The notes under the pieces: generated by a model
The model's input: only the letters and a program-made list of their open reading frames with translations
Told to the model about the DNA's origin: nothing
Databases searched by the model: none
Part shown: in pieces, positions 24,239-31,248 of the stretch
How the letters are laid out: each line of letters opens with the position of its first letter
Position numbering within the stretch: position 1 is the first letter of the stretch
Assembly (NCBI GenBank): GCA_041743655.1
Contig: JBGTMJ010000018.1
Span: forward strand, 11,225-75,224
Length of the DNA: 64,000 nt
Direction: 5' to 3'
DNA from: Candidatus Saccharimonadales bacterium
GTDB lineage: Bacteria > Patescibacteriota > Saccharimonadia > Saccharimonadales > UBA4665
Position numbers and translations under genes: made by a program

Positions 24239-24664
24239 ATGTTACAACTCATCGAAAAGCACCGACATATAACAACCCAGTTTGTACGTTATCTATGGGT
24301 AGCCTTTGTTGGGCTTGGTTTCGACTTCGCTACTTTAGTTTTTTTACGCGAAATAGTTGGCACTCATTACCTCGTAGCAGCGGCTGGCGGTTTCGTTGTT
24401 GGTCTGGCAGTCAACTACTTATTGAGTATCCGATACGTCTTTAAGAACCCAAAAATAAAGTCCCACGCTATGAACTTCGGTATTTTTGGGCTTATAGGGC
24501 TTATTGGGCTTGGCATACTAACCTTGCTTATGTGGGCATTCACCGACGGCCTTACCTTTAACTACATCGTATCAAAGGTTGTTGCGACCTTTTTTGTCTA
24601 TATATGGAACTTTTTTGCCCGCCGCTCGCTCTACCACAACGAACCAACAGATCAAGCAGCGTAA
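24239..24664 (+). CDS. GtrA-family membrane protein (lipid-linked sugar translocase-like)
   Basis: 141 aa, four TM helices, typical ...QFVRYLWVAFVGLGFDF... and ...WNFFARRSLY motifs. Confidence 0.8.
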   Translation: MLQLIEKHRHITTQFVRYLWVAFVGLGFDFATLVFLREIVGTHYLVAAAGGFVVGLAVNYLLSIRYVFKNPKIKSHAMNFGIFGLIGLIGLGILTLLMWAFTDGLTFNYIVSKVVATFFVYIWNFFARRSLYHNEPTDQAA

Positions 24665-25470
24665 TACTTCTGTCCGAGTGCCACGGCTGCCCGGACTCGG
24701 TCAACATTCTCACCTTCGTCACCTGGACGCATCTCAATAGATACAAATCCTTTATGGCCAATCGCCTTAAGCGCTTCTGCTGCCTCCTGATGACGCACAT
24801 CTTCCCGTTCCACAACCTTATCCAACATCGGCGAACTTATATGGAAATGCTTCAGCCAAGAAGCGCCCTGCTTGATTGCTTTTTTCAAATTGTCACTTGC
24901 CAAAGTCATACAGGCAATATCTAGGTGAAGGCCAAAGCCTGGGTTGTTAATCTTTTTGACTAACTTGATACCTTCTTCGGCGTTCGTTACAAAGTCGCAG
25001 GCATACTGGGTAGCATTAGGTTCGATACAAAACTGCACGCCATGTTTGCGGGCTTCGGTACCTAGCTCATTAAAAAATTCATGCGCTATTACATCTGCTT
25101 TGGCCTTACTCAGAGTCCCGCGTTGGCGATTCTTAGGTGAGCCAAAAACTAACACACCCACGCCCATCTTACCGGCCAGGGCAATAAACTGCTTCAAGTA
25201 GGCGAGGGTCTCTTTGCGGTTTTCAGGACTTTCAAATATTTTTAACTCAGGGTGGGGGAAGAGCATCGACTGGAACGCCACCACCTTGATGCCGTGGTCT
25301 TCCCAGAACTTCAGGTAATCCTTGATTTGCTTATCAGTGGCCTTCAGTGGGTCTTCCCATACTTTGGTGGGCGCAATTTCCACATACTTTACTCCCAGTT
25401 TTTGCAGCTCTTTGGCGACTTCTTGTTCCTCGGCAGCCGTCCAGGCGATGTTAGATATAGCTAGCTTCAT
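24652..25470 (-). CDS. xylose-isomerase-like TIM-barrel protein (sugar phosphate isomerase/epimerase family)
   Basis: MKLAISNIAW...VKYVEIAPTKVW... and later HLDIACM.../HFHIS metal-site-like motifs. Paralogous to the next ORF. Confidence 0.7.
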   Translation of the reverse strand: MKLAISNIAWTAAEEQEVAKELQKLGVKYVEIAPTKVWEDPLKATDKQIKDYLKFWEDHGIKVVAFQSMLFPHPELKIFESPENRKETLAYLKQFIALAGKMGVGVLVFGSPKNRQRGTLSKAKADVIAHEFFNELGTEARKHGVQFCIEPNATQYACDFVTNAEEGIKLVKKINNPGFGLHLDIACMTLASDNLKKAIKQGASWLKHFHISSPMLDKVVEREDVRHQEAAEALKAIGHKGFVSIEMRPGDEGENVDRVRAAVALGQKYYAA

Positions 25471-25474
25471 ATTC

Positions 25475-26398
25475 TTAGTTTACAGGATAGTGTGTTCGGA
25501 CAAACCTGACCGCTCTTTCAATATCCTTAATATTTTTATCAAGGGGTTGATTCTTATCCGGCATCATTTCAATGGCAAGAGTAATCATCTTAAACATTTT
25601 TTTACCGCTTACAATATGGCCAAGCGCACGAGCAAACGCTCTATGGTTTTCGTGGGTCTTACTGCCAACAAGGGCCATGCCTTTTTCACTGACTTGCCAA
25701 TGAGAAGCCAGCCGCCCTCCTTCAGCCGCGCGGGTAATAGTTTTAAAGATATTCTCACCGGAATCCTGCATTGCAAATCTGTCCGGTACTAGGACAGGGT
25801 TATGGGCGCTAGACCCTTCCGGGTTGTTGAGCGCACTAAGAAAGCTATCAACTTCAGATCCGCTTCGGCCAAAACCATTCTCAACATACAATCTCGAAAC
25901 CGGTTCAATACCAAGGATGACGTCGTGTTTAGTAGCGTAACCGCCTAATTTGTCAAAGAAATCTGCAGCCATTGCTTGCATTTCACTCCGCGCACGATTC
26001 TTTGGCAATGCTCTGGTGTTTGGAGATCCGTAAATAATTGTTCTAACGCCCGCCAGTTGGGCAAGGTCAATAATCCCCCGTATATGCGTCTTGAGCGTAT
26101 CCCTGCCTTCTTTGTCTCCAAAGATCTCTCCAGGAATTTGATATGTCAATGCTTGGAAACCAGCAATTTTGCGTCCTCGTAAGGTATCGACATATTCACT
26201 TACATCTTGTTTATCAATGGCCTGCGGACCACTCGATAAAATCCTGGGCCATGCCTTTGTCGGAGCAACATCTATTGCCGGCACGTCAAGTTGCACCAAC
26301 ATATCAATGGCCTTTTGGTGAGCAATCCTCCTCTGATTAGCAGTTATTGTATCGGGCCAACATATATTAGAAACGGACAACTCAACAGGCGCAGCCAT
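25475..26398 (-). CDS. xylose-isomerase-like TIM-barrel protein, paralog 2
   Basis: ELSVSNICW...VPAIDVAPTKAW... parallels the N-terminus of 24652..25470. 307 aa. Confidence 0.6.
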   Translation of the reverse strand: MAAPVELSVSNICWPDTITANQRRIAHQKAIDMLVQLDVPAIDVAPTKAWPRILSSGPQAIDKQDVSEYVDTLRGRKIAGFQALTYQIPGEIFGDKEGRDTLKTHIRGIIDLAQLAGVRTIIYGSPNTRALPKNRARSEMQAMAADFFDKLGGYATKHDVILGIEPVSRLYVENGFGRSGSEVDSFLSALNNPEGSSAHNPVLVPDRFAMQDSGENIFKTITRAAEGGRLASHWQVSEKGMALVGSKTHENHRAFARALGHIVSGKKMFKMITLAIEMMPDKNQPLDKNIKDIERAVRFVRTHYPVN

Positions 26399-29152: not shown

Positions 29153-29153
29153 A

Positions 29154-30140
29154 TTAGTTTGTAATATTTCTACGAGTAGCGTCGGCTACACTGACTTTGC
29201 TATTTAACTCATCTGCAATATGATACGTTGCATCGGCTTGCGTTTCTTGCAATATTTTACCAATATATTCACATATAAATGCTAAAATAGCGAACAATAA
29301 GAAGAACATTACAGATGACTGTAATGACAGTGTGGTCCAGCCCTCGGCAACGTTGTGCTTAAATAACCTAACCGTAACTACATAGAGTGCATAGACCAAG
29401 TTGAGGAACGAGCCCAAAAATCCAAGCCAGGCGAGGAAACGCAGAGGACGATTGGAGTAGGTGGTGGATAGTTCTAATGCTGATGTAATCAGGCGAGGGA
29501 TTGAATTATGTTCGATCATTGACTCTTTTGGGTCGTATTGTACTTCACAGGAACTATAGCCAATCTGTCGCGCCAGATACCGTATATGTCTCGCATTACG
29601 GCCACTGCGTGTCAGTGCATTTACCGCCCGACGGCTTAATGCCATGTAGTACGTGGCATTCTCGGGAATAGAAATTTGAAGGAACTTTTTGTTATACCAA
29701 TAGAACAGTTTGGCGCCGTAGTGGTTTACCAAACCAGCGCGGGTTCGTTGCTTGCTCACTCCAAACACTAAGTCATATTGCGTTGCTTCGGCCACGAATG
29801 TGGTTAGTAGTTTTGGCGGATCATTGAACGATTTGATCACTACAATATCCCCGATGGCCGACTCCAGTCCCACGAACACACACACGTCCTTTGTAGCATG
29901 CCTTGATAAGCGAACTATACGCACACAAGGAATGGTGTCTAGCAGTTTCGTAACCTTTTGCATCTCTTGCGGCAATACACCGCCATCCACAACAATAATT
30001 TCGTAGTTGGCATACTTTGCTTGCAAGATACTGCTCAAGGTCTTTATTTCCTTGCTTAAGTACTTGCTCTGTTTATCAGTTACCACTATAGCTGATACGA
30101 ATATGTCCATTAATATTGCCGGTTTCTCTCTTTTAGCCAT
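29154..30140 (-). CDS. GtrB/ArnC-architecture GT2 with two C-terminal TM helices; DxD motif degenerate
   Basis: GT-A domain (AIVVTDKQ...YEIIVVDGG) plus C-terminal helices (FLAWLGFLGSFLNLVYALYVV, SSVMFFLLFAILAFICEYI). Where relatives have DADLQDPP this protein reads IKSFNDPP. Confidence 0.7.
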   Translation of the reverse strand: MAKREKPAILMDIFVSAIVVTDKQSKYLSKEIKTLSSILQAKYANYEIIVVDGGVLPQEMQKVTKLLDTIPCVRIVRLSRHATKDVCVFVGLESAIGDIVVIKSFNDPPKLLTTFVAEATQYDLVFGVSKQRTRAGLVNHYGAKLFYWYNKKFLQISIPENATYYMALSRRAVNALTRSGRNARHIRYLARQIGYSSCEVQYDPKESMIEHNSIPRLITSALELSTTYSNRPLRFLAWLGFLGSFLNLVYALYVVTVRLFKHNVAEGWTTLSLQSSVMFFLLFAILAFICEYIGKILQETQADATYHIADELNSKVSVADATRRNITN

Positions 30141-31248
30141 ACAGTATATCTAACTCCCTGAACGCATCATATATATTATCGAGCTTTCCGCCCATAATAC
30201 AGTGGTATCCTGGCAAACCGTTATTTTTTCGGAAAAGGATAGGGCGGCTATCATCACGTTCGCTTTGTGGCAGTACTGTTTTTACTTCCCACAATGAATC
30301 TTTATATGTTGCCGATCCCAATGCGGGTAAATACCGCTTAGCGTCAGCCAATATTTTAGGAAAGTGGCTGATGTGTGTGGTAGCTTCTAGATATGCGTGG
30401 CCATCACGATAGTTTTTTTCGTTATCGGGCCATTCACTGTGGGGAGTATAGCGCACATGCGACAGTGTAGTCAGATTGCGTACAGGGAATGGCATGAAAG
30501 AAAAAAACGGGCCACACATTACCGTAACAGAAACTTTCTCTAACTCTTTGGGCAGATCAATAAGGCACATTTCGGCTAGTTCGTGCTTTAGTGGAATGAA
30601 TGGCAAGTGTGATGCCTTGTTCAGCTTATTAATATGCGAATACGTACAATTCAAAACGTTTTTGGTTTCAAAATGCTTACCATCCTCTGTTTCCAGTACT
30701 AACTTACCGCCCTTAGGAAAGATCTGACGTACGGATTTTCCAGTATACAGCTCCACTCCAGAATTTGCCAAGTCATTGACTAACTTATCTCTGATAATGT
30801 CAGCATTAAACGCATATTCTTTTACCTTGAATACATCTTCGATGAGTTTATTGTTAAAAAGATCTTTTATAGCCTTGGGTGCACTGTCTACCTCTGCACT
30901 GATACGATCACAGAATAGTTTGAATTGACGTGCCGACACCTTAGAGAATTGTCGGGCTATAGCATAGTATTTATCAAAATCTTTTTCAATCGCACTCTCG
31001 TTTTCGGCAACAAAGCGGGAAAAGTTTACTTGTGAGCGTAAACCCGTAAGTAGACTCCGCGGATAGTGGTATCCACCATGTACACGAGCTTGGTTGTTAT
31101 ACGATGCACGGCGCATGAACTCATTTTCTTTTTCTATTACTACTACGCGTTTTTGTTTTAGGTGCGTACGCAGATAACGGGCAATGCTAAGCCCGAAAAA
31201 GCCTCCTCCTATGATCATCGTATCATTTGCTTCCGCCATATATCCCAA
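30133..31248 (-). CDS. FAD-dependent oxidoreductase (DAO/GlpD/LhgO-like fold)
   Basis: MIIGGGFFGLSIARYL...VVVIEK dinucleotide-binding motif. TTG at 31248 or ATG at 31239. The stop overlaps the next gene start (ATGGCTAA). Confidence 0.8.
   Translation of the reverse strand: MGYMAEANDTMIIGGGFFGLSIARYLRTHLKQKRVVVIEKENEFMRRASYNNQARVHGGYHYPRSLLTGLRSQVNFSRFVAENESAIEKDFDKYYAIARQFSKVSARQFKLFCDRISAEVDSAPKAIKDLFNNKLIEDVFKVKEYAFNADIIRDKLVNDLANSGVELYTGKSVRQIFPKGGKLVLETEDGKHFETKNVLNCTYSHINKLNKASHLPFIPLKHELAEMCLIDLPKELEKVSVTVMCGPFFSFMPFPVRNLTTLSHVRYTPHSEWPDNEKNYRDGHAYLEATTHISHFPKILADAKRYLPALGSATYKDSLWEVKTVLPQSERDDSRPILFRKNNGLPGYHCIMGGKLDNIYDAFRELDILYG

Follow-up and report, generated by a model that had tools for sequence, protein, structure and literature searches.

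A conserved, probably sugar-remodelling cassette linked to surface glycans at a probable Saccharibacteria locus

The locus reported here has a described counterpart in Escherichia coli, where the orthologous genes lie between gnd and ugd, beside an ABC-transporter O-antigen cluster of the O89/O101/O162 family. Liu et al. 2020 named these orthologues as candidates for the synthesis and transfer of 4-deoxy-D-arabino-hexose (PMC7685785). The O162 antigen is O101 with a side branch of this sugar, and O101 carries an IS disruption in the gene that comes next after gnd (PMC7685785, PMC13168486), which is the FAD gene. We found the E. coli FAD gene truncated by IS4 in three of the six genomes examined; the link between gene and structure is a correlation across two serogroups drawn from the literature, and the E. 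coli cassette is an unproven candidate for making the sugar. By sugar nomenclature, 4-deoxy-D-arabino-hexose differs from glucose or galactose by inversion at C2 and C3 and loss of O4, and an FAD oxidoreductase, an SDR-like protein and a TIM barrel are the sole non-glycosyltransferase enzymes of the E. coli cassette. An earlier note on the DNA analysed here had likened it to DprE1/DprE2 and to the GMC/C-glycoside systems; both are analogies only, as their folds differ from those of the cassette enzymes. The note had also regarded the gene combination as one without a described pathway, a view overtaken by the E. coli work in which the set had already been noticed (PMC7685785).

The window, the whole 64-kb stretch of DNA that we analysed, holds a copy of this cassette, probably in a Saccharibacteria genome. 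The ORF listing confirmed the positions and minus-strand orientation of the eight ORFs described previously, and their translations contain the motifs IIGGGFFG, GYTGFVGGNI, ISNIAW/VSNICW and APTK that had been quoted. Two of the eight, of 158 and 89 aa, are pieces of one pseudogene, so the locus comprises seven genes, six of them intact. The reported tight junctions at the 5' end were also found: an 8-nt overlap, ATGGCTAA, at 30133-30140 joins the FAD gene to a membrane-anchored GT2 gene, and a 1-nt spacer separates the latter (29154) from a soluble GT2 gene (29152). The window further carries RmlBCDA at 20864-24225 and, at 43419-48858 on the minus strand, genes assigned by Pfam to a WsaF-like rhamnosyltransferase, Wzt, Wzm and a GT2-GT4 fusion. 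The latter group is an ABC-transporter-type backbone synthesis unit that likely supplies the acceptor polymer, and its nearness to the cassette parallels the arrangement in E. coli.

The cassette consists of a DAO-type FAD oxidoreductase, the membrane-anchored GT2, the soluble GT2, a short extended-SDR-like protein and a xylose-isomerase-like TIM barrel. All five families occurred together in 37 of the 41 related loci whose flanks reach at least 8 kb on both sides, spanning more than 10 phyla, and this co-occurrence places the gene arrangement far beyond chance. The hosts include Saccharibacteria, Proteobacteria, Cyanobacteria, Planctomycetota, Verrucomicrobiota, Chloroflexia, Myxococcota and Actinobacteria. 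The SDR gene was followed by the TIM barrel gene in 37/41 loci, and at least one protein of seven or more TM segments stood beside the cassette in 34 of 35 loci tested; a crude scan, which probably undercounts, detected a small 3-4-TM flippase (GtrA or SMR) in 14 of the 35. A few relatives have the FAD and anchored GT2 genes without the SDR and TIM genes. Besides the cassette, a 10.8-kb Psychrobacter plasmid has only genes for an SMR protein and a membrane protein of 479 aa and the rep/mob genes, so the precursor must be a housekeeping one. The earlier note would have counted its reading as refuted had the FAD enzyme and the barrels fallen into ordinary catabolic families without synteny to glycosyltransferases; this test does not refute it, for in the relatives they lie outside catabolic contexts and are almost always syntenic with two GT2s and polytopic membrane proteins, and at some loci also with a detected flippase.

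The FAD ORF spans 30133-31248 on the minus strand, with a probable ATG start at 31239 that gives a 368-aa protein (database protein P0001) of the DAO superfamily (30133-31239; PF01266, E=3.9e-20). Partial NCBIfam matches to LhgO and the type-2 glycerol-3-P oxidase make alcohol-oxidising LhgO and GlpO types its best curated family matches. Its AF2 model (pLDDT 90) was closest in Foldseek to glycine oxidase, sarcosine oxidase beta, GlpO and L2HGDH (TM 0.70-0.75, 11-16% identity). The family comprises 418 clusters at 50% identity (E<=1e-30) and includes one natural fusion of the FAD enzyme to a GFO_IDH_MocA oxidoreductase domain. We propose that the enzyme oxidises a sugar hydroxyl, probably that at C2. 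The 328-aa anchored GT2 (29154-30140, minus strand), with its C-terminal TM hairpin, resembles GtrB and ArnC (NCBIfam PgfS 1e-26, ArnC 7e-15; PDB GtrB 5EKE 6e-24 over residues 34-310). In 38 of the 41 loci its gene comes immediately after the FAD gene, both on one strand, and the Psychrobacter plasmid encodes the two GT2s as a single fused protein. The homology and the hairpin agree with the GtrB-like assignment made previously, but neither the DXD position (68 orthologues) nor the RxxGxSK loop is conserved, which weakens the suggestion that this protein makes the sugar donor. It probably partners the FAD enzyme, either by anchoring it to the membrane or by binding polyprenyl phosphate, and may serve as an anchor or scaffold rather than a synthase.

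We propose the soluble DPM1/AglJ-like GT2 (28295-29152, minus strand, 285 aa; Pfam GT2 1e-6) as the catalytic polyprenyl-phosphate-sugar synthase. It matched AglJ (3e-15) and dolichyl-P-hexose transferase (4e-8) in NCBIfam, and its alignment to DPMS 5MLZ takes in the C-terminal loop. The motifs DGGStDGS, DGN.KD and PTKIS are kept in at least 90% of 54 orthologues, and at 50-75% identity across phyla it is the most conserved member of the cassette. Between the soluble GT2 and SDR genes lies the pseudogene of a ~290-aa accessory protein (27264-28191, minus strand), whose parts are the 158-aa ORF at 27715-28191 and the 89-aa ORF at 27246-27515. In tblastn, an intact 292-aa homologue (L021:11653-12531) covered 28137-27264 in three frames, revealing two frameshifts, one close to 27750 and one close to 27530, and an in-frame TAG at a position that is Trp in the homologue. 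Across the first frameshift two short-read contigs, which may share one sample, are 100% identical. Intact homologues occurred in 13 of 80 loci, mostly in Saccharibacteria, and most loci were without the gene; the protein matched nothing in Pfam, NCBIfam or PDB.

The SDR-like NAD(P) protein (26418-27188, minus strand, 256 aa; Pfam Epimerase PF01370, 1.8e-5) is proposed to be a keto-sugar reductase. Its AF2 model (pLDDT 94) corresponds in fold to NDP-sugar keto-reductases and epimerases (Foldseek hits GalE, RMD, RmlD, MoeE5 and TunA; TM 0.6-0.74). GYTGFVG and LISTvDVY are conserved; the catalytic motif reads YG..R, that is YxxxR in place of YxxxK, a replacement that counts against the pathway favoured below. 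The core barrel, TIM1 (24652-25470, minus strand, 272 aa; AP_endonuc_2 2.6e-25), matched the IolO epimerase (4e-19) and psicose 3-epimerase (3e-15) in NCBIfam and 3KWS and TM0416 in PDB, resembling enzymes that act alpha to a keto group. Four E/D/H/E positions conserved in 59 sequences are presumably the metal site, by comparison with ketose 3-epimerases. We propose that TIM1 deprotonates C3 beside a keto group, leading to epimerisation and/or elimination of the 4-OH. A second, divergent barrel (25475-26398, minus strand, 307 aa; AP_endonuc_2 3.3e-6, below the gathering score) is 29% identical to TIM1, keeps the metal ligands E, D and E, and has Gln for His. In none of the compared loci was there an orthologue closer than the neighbouring barrel, and seven loci have a second barrel in the same slot between SDR and TIM1, so that it is a fast-evolving paralogue limited to some lineages. 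No TM segment was predicted in the soluble GT2, FAD, SDR or TIM proteins, and for the last three this fits a cytoplasmic location.

Convergent with the cassette is a gene for a small GtrA-family membrane protein (24239-24664, plus strand; PF04138 9e-17), a candidate flippase. Nine loci have a GtrA-type or similar 3-4-TM gene in the same convergent slot after the TIM barrel, and proteobacterial cassettes have an SMR/EamA-like 4-TM protein in its place. Two polytopic proteins, of 583 aa and ~10 TM (35943-37694, minus strand) and of 666 aa and ~14 TM (37897-39897, plus strand), belong to no Pfam or NCBIfam family and are candidate transferases only. They show no detectable relationship to the membrane proteins linked to the cassette at other loci, of which the 64-kb window has no homologue, and in this respect the idea that GT-C-like enzymes a few kb away receive the donor needs revision.

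We favour, with modest confidence, a pathway in which the cassette donates a remodelled monosaccharide to Gtr-like extracytoplasmic glycosylation decorating a surface polysaccharide, by way of lipid-linked C2 oxidation and 4-OH loss. The soluble GT2 would put a common hexose on polyprenyl phosphate, the motif-degenerate GT2 would keep it at the membrane, and the cytoplasmic FAD enzyme, coupled to that GT2, would oxidise the C2 hydroxyl. The metal-dependent barrel would then take the C3 proton, like ketose 3-epimerases, and eject the 4-OH, in the manner of IolE, a related dehydratase acting on 2-keto-inositol, to yield a 4-deoxy-2,3-diulose. The nearest curated families of TIM1 are epimerases and isomerases and not IolE-type dehydratases, which counts against dehydration. 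The SDR-like protein, possibly with FADH2, would reduce the keto groups with new stereochemistry, giving a 4-deoxyhexose such as 4-deoxy-D-arabino-hexose, which GtrA would flip and a polytopic transferase attach as a side branch on the ABC-transporter-made, probably rhamnose-containing polymer. The idea that the locus oxidises, epimerises and re-reduces a sugar largely stands: oxidation, action beside a keto group, re-reduction and transfer to a GT-C-like enzyme fit the enzyme families and the O101/O162 correlation, but deoxygenation is likelier than epimerisation alone since Liu et al. 2020 named the orthologues for a 4-deoxy sugar. The earlier interpretation as a whole is partly supported. 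The window and E. coli proteins are 51, 33, 47, 43 and 33% identical (FAD 51%, TIM1 33%), and the low TIM1 value and the extra barrel indicate that the product may differ in the window organism.

Since all structural neighbours of the SDR-like protein act on nucleotide sugars, remodelling could come before lipid loading, with the FAD, TIM and SDR proteins converting an NDP-hexose in the cytoplasm to an NDP-4-deoxyhexose or epimer; a GT2 would then load this product onto polyprenyl phosphate, to be flipped and transferred. The deoxysugar pathways known to us act at the NDP level, and the soluble GT2, with its conserved DPMS-like loop, could take a modified donor. We nevertheless hold this order of events to be doubtful: the FAD gene is tied to the degenerate GT2 and translationally coupled to it here, the cassette has no nucleotidyltransferase, DprE1/E2 and C. 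youngae ORF13 are precedents for the lipid stage, and the SDR-like protein, at 256 aa, falls well short of the ~290-340 aa of its NDP-sugar relatives. Those same precedents, the 3-epimerase families nearest TIM1 and the presence of two barrels would suit epimerisation without oxygen loss in the window organism, the product being a rare epimer, for instance an allo- or altro-hexose; this is improbable given the correlation of the E. coli cassette with a 4-deoxy sugar and the lack of any other candidate dehydratase in that cassette.

The missing cassette-type membrane protein and the pseudogene indicate that the window copy may be incomplete. That it is a decaying remnant, its accessory gene dead, its cognate transferase lost and no modification made, would agree with the three lesions and with a slot between the soluble GT2 and SDR genes, home of such proteins in relatives, that has only the pseudogene. 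We consider such decay unlikely, as GtrA and all five core genes retain their full length and conserved motifs, the accessory gene is missing from most loci anyway, and two polytopic proteins lie 5-9 kb off. Keto-glycoside catabolic pathways are marked by the pairing of an oxidoreductase with xylose-isomerase-like barrels, and such a pathway, of glucoside 3-dehydrogenase or C-glycoside type, might merely be sited among surface-glycan genes; already disfavoured, this is extremely improbable, because the FAD enzyme has a DAO fold rather than GMC or GFO, the cassette is without transporters or kinases, and it is strictly syntenic with GT2s, flippases and polytopic membrane proteins and found inside O-antigen loci. 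The role of the cassette in surface glycans is well supported, and the cassette, which probably supplies such polymers with an unusual sugar carried on a lipid, occurs in hundreds of bacterial species.

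The window holds a large surface-polysaccharide locus, with RmlBCDA and a GtrA gene upstream of the cassette and UXS, UGDH, a second GtrA, a GT2 and a methyltransferase downstream. The other genes of the locus encode a Wzy_C-type protein, an initiating Bac_transf transferase, GlmS, ManC, PMM, a WsaF-like rhamnosyltransferase, Wzt/Wzm, a GT2-GT4 fusion and two polytopic membrane proteins without a family; promoter and terminator scans gave background level only and were left unused. All eight minus-strand ORFs that an earlier note placed at 24652-31248 are present, the tight junctions it claimed are real, and profile searches upheld its domain guesses: an FAD enzyme (30133..31239), an anchored GT2 (29154..30140), a soluble GT2 (28295..29152), a Rossmann protein of the SDR type (26418..27188) and two TIM barrels, the core barrel TIM1 (24652..25470) and the divergent barrel TIM2 (25475..26398). 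We refer to these genes, TIM2 excepted, as the cassette. The note had also listed a frameshifted ORF and a separate 89-aa ORF; both ORFs exist but not as separate genes, the 158-aa and 89-aa pieces being one gene (27264..28191, minus strand). An intact 292-aa homologue spans 28137-27264 in three reading frames when aligned to the window, and the lesions in this remnant of an accessory protein are two frameshifts and a TAG at the position of a Trp in the homologue. The first lesion is unlikely to be an assembly slip because two short-read contigs of other runs, both of which may go back to the same sample, are identical across it. The locus comprises seven genes, six of them intact, and the accessory family represented by the pseudogene was found in 13 loci. 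At its 3' end TIM1 overlaps the 3' end of the convergent GtrA gene by 13 bp (24652-24664). Farther away, a 943-aa single-TM protein with a short EccB-like segment (39894-42725, minus strand) and a 186-aa TM protein (42730-43290, minus strand) recur beside the cassette in 17 and 7 loci, respectively, the loci listed being from Saccharibacteria.

The FAD enzyme matches Pfam DAO (E=3.9e-20) and gave a confident AlphaFold model (pLDDT 90), whose Foldseek neighbours are glycine/sarcosine oxidases, glycerophosphate oxidase and L-2-hydroxyglutarate dehydrogenase (TM 0.70-0.75, 11-16% identity). Judged by this model, the enzyme represents a separate branch of the DAO superfamily. The protein family is sharply bounded, the best 120 of 6081 word-index matches all being above 53% identity, and it forms 418 clusters (50% identity) at E<=1e-30 in the representative library. 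A metagenomic protein of 781 aa (P0382) is a natural fusion of a GFO_IDH_MocA oxidoreductase domain and a cassette-type FAD enzyme. A sequence search of the PDB returned nothing useful for the FAD, SDR and accessory proteins, and NCBIfam has no equivalog for any of the five cassette proteins.

The SDR-like protein is short (256 aa) and matches the NAD-epimerase family weakly, yet it models as an extended SDR (pLDDT 94) with GalE, RMD, RmlD, MoeE5 and TunA as its nearest structures. It keeps the GYTGFVG and ST...Y elements, but in place of the YxxxK of extended SDRs it carries YG..R (YxxxR), with Arg at the Lys position in at least 90% of 57 orthologues. TIM1 is a clear AP_endonuc_2 protein (Pfam E=2.6e-25, 90 bits against a cut-off of 31), and its E, D, H and E positions, which from general knowledge of the family we take to be a metal site of the ketose 3-epimerase type, are all conserved in 59 sequences. 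The match of TIM2 is weak (3.3e-6; 27 bits, under the Pfam cut-off), its metal-site His is replaced by Gln, and no orthologue of it was found at the other loci; in oral Saccharibacteria, a second barrel occupies the same slot in the order SDR-TIMx-TIM1. Neither the FAD enzyme nor the SDR nor the barrel has a TM segment.

The anchored GT2 has the C-terminal TM hairpin of PgfS/ArnC-like proteins and aligns with the GtrB crystal structure at 6e-24 and with ArnC at 2e-9. The hairpin and its flanking motifs are conserved, but the position of the GtrB D-A-D motif varies among 68 orthologues (I-K-S in the window), and the RxxGxSK loop, a usual feature of polyprenyl-phosphate-sugar synthases, is likewise not conserved. 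The soluble GT2 resembles AglJ and dolichyl-phosphate hexose transferases and lacks a TM segment; its DGGStDGS, DGN.KD (the DXD position) and PTKIS motifs are conserved in at least 90% of 54 orthologues, and one of its loops aligns with the acceptor loop of DPMS. On the Psychrobacter plasmid pA22P4 (locus L085, 5410-7188), the two GT2s form one continuous ORF of 592 aa, a single case of natural fusion that speaks for a joint role. The PLSDB gene table annotates only the C-terminal 262 aa of the fusion as a CDS. We infer a split enzyme whose soluble subunit would be catalytic; the anchored subunit, a degenerate paralogue, would also recruit the FAD enzyme.

For every cassette protein the best matches come from Candidatus Saccharibacteria (65% identity for the FAD enzyme), which points to this phylum as the probable source. 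A scan of species-representative genomes (one per species, about 186,000 in all) found the cassette in at least 595. The best 80 of these at least 595 loci belong to Saccharibacteria, Enterobacteriaceae, Moritella, cyanobacteria, Planctomycetota, Verrucomicrobiota, Chloroflexia, Myxococcota, Acidobacteriota and one actinobacterium. Of 41 loci flanked by 8 kb or more on each side, 37 have all four partners beside the FAD gene according to tblastn with the window proteins; two sub-modules are fixed, the anchored GT2 directly after the FAD gene (38/41) and the SDR gene followed by a TIM barrel (37/41). Conservation within the cassette is highest for the soluble GT2 (50-75% identity) and lowest for the anchored GT2 (30-60%). 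The Psychrobacter plasmid is a version of 10.8 kb that carries SDR, TIM, SMR, FAD, the GT2s and a 479-aa membrane protein, the rest being rep and mob genes. UDP-xylose, which the neighbouring UGDH/UXS genes could supply, was rejected as the starting sugar since those genes are not part of the conserved neighbourhood of the cassette and the plasmid copy lacks genes for precursors. A search of the phage collection gave a single partial, weak match and no sign of phage carriage. ATP-citrate-lyase-like genes directly follow the cassette at locus L003 (15108-18088; GCA_040961535.1, on a 380-kb contig). Variant loci (L048, L066 and L071; also L045, L065 and L081) from Eisenbacteria, Gemmatimonadaceae and unclassified bacterial MAGs keep the FAD enzyme and the anchored GT2, have no SDR or TIM barrel and carry a different GT2 (33-36% identity); the FAD-anchored GT2 pair may have a function of its own.

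A candidate flippase in the window is the GtrA protein (PF04138, 9e-17; 24239-24664, plus strand), convergent with the cassette and placed likewise in relatives. In an ORF-clustering survey of 35 loci, at least one protein with 7-14 TM helices lies beside the cassette in 34; a small protein of 3-4 TM helices, of GtrA or SMR/EamA type, was seen in 14 by a crude scan that probably undercounts. One of the membrane-protein clusters is DUF2142; apart from this cluster, neither the polytopic membrane proteins nor the accessory protein matched a Pfam or NCBIfam family. The earlier note had placed GT-C-like enzymes a few kb from the cassette: polytopic proteins of 583 aa (35943-37694, minus strand) and 666 aa (37897-39897, plus strand) do lie 5-9 kb away (35943-39897), but they match no family and show no similarity to the membrane proteins beside the cassette in relatives. 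HMMs of six membrane-protein clusters found no relative within the 64-kb window, in which the slot used for membrane proteins elsewhere holds only the pseudogene. One family of about 450 aa and nine TM helices, with 'FYPG[WY]MSPDS' in its first loop, is common to the E. coli and oral Saccharibacteria cassettes (cluster c15; L090 17000-18358 in E. coli, and L012, L014-L017, L021 and L026). It has no Pfam or NCBIfam model and is a candidate for a new GT-C-like transferase family. Homologues of the E. coli member, a 452-aa protein with 'FYPGWMSPDS', lie inside the cassettes of seven Saccharibacteria loci (1e-16 to 1e-20); none was found in the window.

The E. coli loci connect the cassette to a named sugar. 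Sensitive blastn with the Phytobacter copy as the query detected the cassette in 8 of 5426 complete E. coli genomes, where megablast had given no cassette match. In NCTC10973, gnd and ugd flank the cassette, which immediately follows an ABC-transporter O-antigen cluster of the O89/O101/O162 family and has the order FAD, anchored GT2 (annotated hypothetical), SDR, TIM, SMR, soluble GT2 and a 452-aa protein with about nine TM helices. Identities between the window and the E. coli locus L090 (tblastn) are 51% for FAD, 33% for the anchored GT2, 43% for SDR, 33% for TIM and 47% for the soluble GT2; the alignments are nearly full length for all except TIM1 (residues 1-216 of 272). O162 consists of O101 backbones with a 4-deoxy-D-arabino-hexose side branch, and the gene immediately following gnd is disrupted by an IS element in O101 (Liu et al. 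2020, PMC7685785). The gnd-ugd genes have been named as candidates for synthesis and transfer of this branch (PMC7685785; PMC13168486); the pathway of the sugar 'has not yet been identified' according to PMC7685785, and the genes are still 'hypothesized' in Weerdenburg et al. 2026 (PMC13168486). For Franconibacter pulveris O1, where this sugar is again in a side chain on an ABC-transporter polymer, its origin was called 'unclear' in 2024 (PMC11231755), and Citrobacter is also cited for it in PMC6240886 and PMC5530964. As an independent check of the IS statement, we found the 5' end of the FAD gene occupied by IS4 in three of six cassette-bearing E. coli genomes: L091 1704-4146 (SCPM-O-B-12142), L092 1704-5459 (SCPM-O-B-7615) and SCPM-O-B-9504 (blastn match H25). 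The annotated FAD CDS is thereby shortened from 371 to 357 aa; the 14 codons lost at its 5' end include the beginning of the FAD-binding motif. The IS4 of L092 contains a nested IS3-family element, and an IS3-family transposase is listed under match H25. A second, 64%-identical variant of the cassette is carried by an E. coli plasmid of 136 kb from pig faeces (NZ_CP182143.1, 79100-82957; H21).

The window set is an orthologue of the E. coli O162 gene set, which had already been flagged, and only hypothesised, in that organism. The gene combination that the earlier note did not recognise had thus been singled out before; no paper describing the biochemistry of the cassette was found in a literature search outside which most subscription journals fell. 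Leads to Xanthomonas and Actinoplanes in the literature proved to be DprE/UbiA-type or plain GtrA systems. In both the window and E. coli O162/O101, all five enzymes are orthologous and clustered, and an ABC-transporter-type polysaccharide locus adjoins them. The E. coli set differs in gene order, in having SMR for GtrA and one TIM barrel instead of two, and in its cognate 452-aa membrane protein, which is absent from the window.

DprE1/DprE2, which convert decaprenyl-phosphoryl-ribose to arabinose with Rv3789 as the flippase and GT-C arabinosyltransferases, follow the scheme proposed for the cassette: oxidation of a polyprenyl-phosphate sugar at C2 by a flavoenzyme, re-reduction by an NAD(P)H-dependent reductase, then the action of a small flippase and GT-C transfer. 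DprE1 belongs to the VAO/PCMH-type flavoproteins and DprE2 to the classical SDRs, whereas the cassette has a DAO-fold flavoprotein and an extended-SDR-like protein; no VAO/PCMH-type domain was found, the Foldseek neighbours of the FAD enzyme all being two-domain flavoproteins of the DAAO/GlpO type. The DprE1/DprE2 donor derives from PRPP through a UbiA-type transferase, but neither the conserved neighbour clusters nor the scanned window genes included a UbiA-type phosphoribosyl transferase; the cassette instead adds a TIM barrel and two GT2s. The three-component pentofuranose system of Citrobacter youngae (ORF15/ORF12/ORF13; Kelly et al. 2024, PMC11127046) resembles our proposal in adding a side branch after polymerisation to an ABC-transporter O-antigen and in using an auxiliary cytoplasmic SDR that alters the identity of the lipid-linked sugar, but its donor is PRPP-derived and its single GalE-like epimerase has YxxxK, with no flavoprotein, TIM barrel or GT2. 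GtrABC, CsbB-GtcA-YfhO and ArnC-ArnE/F-ArnT share with the cassette a GT2 with a C-terminal TM hairpin and a GtrA/SMR flippase, and relatives of the cassette have polytopic transferases; in the cassette, however, the GtrB-like member keeps neither a conserved DXD nor the RxxGxSK loop, a second, soluble GT2 is added, and so are three enzymes of redox or isomerase type. TIM1 shares the PF01261 fold and the assigned metal positions with ketose 3-epimerases, IolO and IolE, its best curated matches being IolO and psicose 3-epimerase, but its scores fall far under every family cut-off (69 against 300 bits), and its proposed substrate would be a phospho-lipid-linked hexos-2-ulose on which it would act as a dehydratase. 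A catabolic reading, in which an oxidoreductase and TIM barrels would process keto-glycosides, is disfavoured: the fold is DAO, synteny is with glycosyltransferases, flippases and O-antigen loci, and neither the GMC/GFO oxidoreductase nor the catabolic synteny of glycoside 3-dehydrogenase/C-glycoside deglycosylase systems was found. The cassette falls outside DprE1/DprE2 and probably outside GtrABC: its flavoprotein fold differs, no UbiA-type transferase was found, the SDR is YxxxR and the DXD is degenerate. By analogy it would still work like both. We rate it as a putative three-component glycosylation system with a previously uncharacterised remodelling module.

In carbohydrate nomenclature, 4-deoxy-D-arabino-hexose has C2 left, C3 right and C5 right; relative to glucose or galactose, C2 and C3 are inverted and O4 is lost, and relative to mannose the only inversion is at C3. 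If the cassette is responsible for this sugar, its FAD, SDR and TIM enzymes must do the chemistry, because in E. coli they are the only enzymes of the cassette that are neither glycosyltransferases nor membrane proteins. In the simplest route, the FAD enzyme would oxidise the C2-OH, on the carbon beside C1-O-phosphate, as in DprE1 and glycerol-3-phosphate oxidation. It might instead oxidise an amine, which we consider less likely: its best curated partial matches are LhgO and type-2 glycerol-3-phosphate oxidase, both of which oxidise a C-OH group. With alcohol oxidation as the preferred first step, the TIM barrel would remove H3 with the help of a metal, the first half-reaction of ketose 3-epimerases, and the 4-OH would be expelled to give the enol of a 4-deoxy-2,3-diulose. 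IolE, also of PF01261, carries out this kind of reaction on 2-keto-inositol. Two stereospecific reductions would follow, for which one NAD(P)H net would be enough if the FADH2 is recycled. The stage at which this happens could be a nucleotide sugar, an alternative that is still alive given the resemblance of the SDR to NDP-sugar enzymes; we favour the lipid-linked stage because the FAD gene is locked to the anchored GT2. After remodelling on the lipid carrier, GtrA would flip the product and a polytopic enzyme would transfer it, in a Gtr-like system that parallels the pentofuranose systems of Kelly et al. (PMC11127046).

Taken in all its parts, the proposal is tentative and on balance rather doubtful: the cassette would be the first pathway to deoxygenate a polyprenyl-phosphate-linked sugar, with 2-keto formation by the DAO enzyme, IolE-like loss of the 4-OH, and resetting of C2 and C3 by the YxxxR SDR and FADH2 to yield Und-P-4-deoxy-D-arabino-hexose, the dead GtrB paralogue being the scaffold of a split synthase and the same chemistry serving the cell walls of epibiotic Saccharibacteria. 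With a barrel only 33% identical to that of E. coli and an extra barrel present, the window may specify a sugar that is related to the E. coli one but distinct from it; alternatively, partial decay may have affected this copy.

Biosynthesis of 4-deoxy-D-arabino-hexose is explicitly unsolved in the literature. Our analysis widens a remark about six genes in two E. coli serogroups into a defined five-gene cassette with a flippase and a transferase, and adds conserved motifs, sub-modules, a minimal version on a 10.8-kb plasmid, and E. coli FAD genes knocked out naturally by IS elements, so that the deoxysugar pathway is now a directly testable question. Kelly et al. 2024 were aware of no further epimerases acting in O-antigen side-chain glycosylation (PMC11127046). 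If the lipid-linked model is true, the cassette would be a third, mechanistically different way of remodelling a sugar on a polyprenyl carrier, after DprE1/E2 and ORF13. To our knowledge, the surface glycans of oral Saccharibacteria are uncharacterised; cultivated members of this group are among the carriers of the cassette, and their surface glycans probably matter for attachment to the host.
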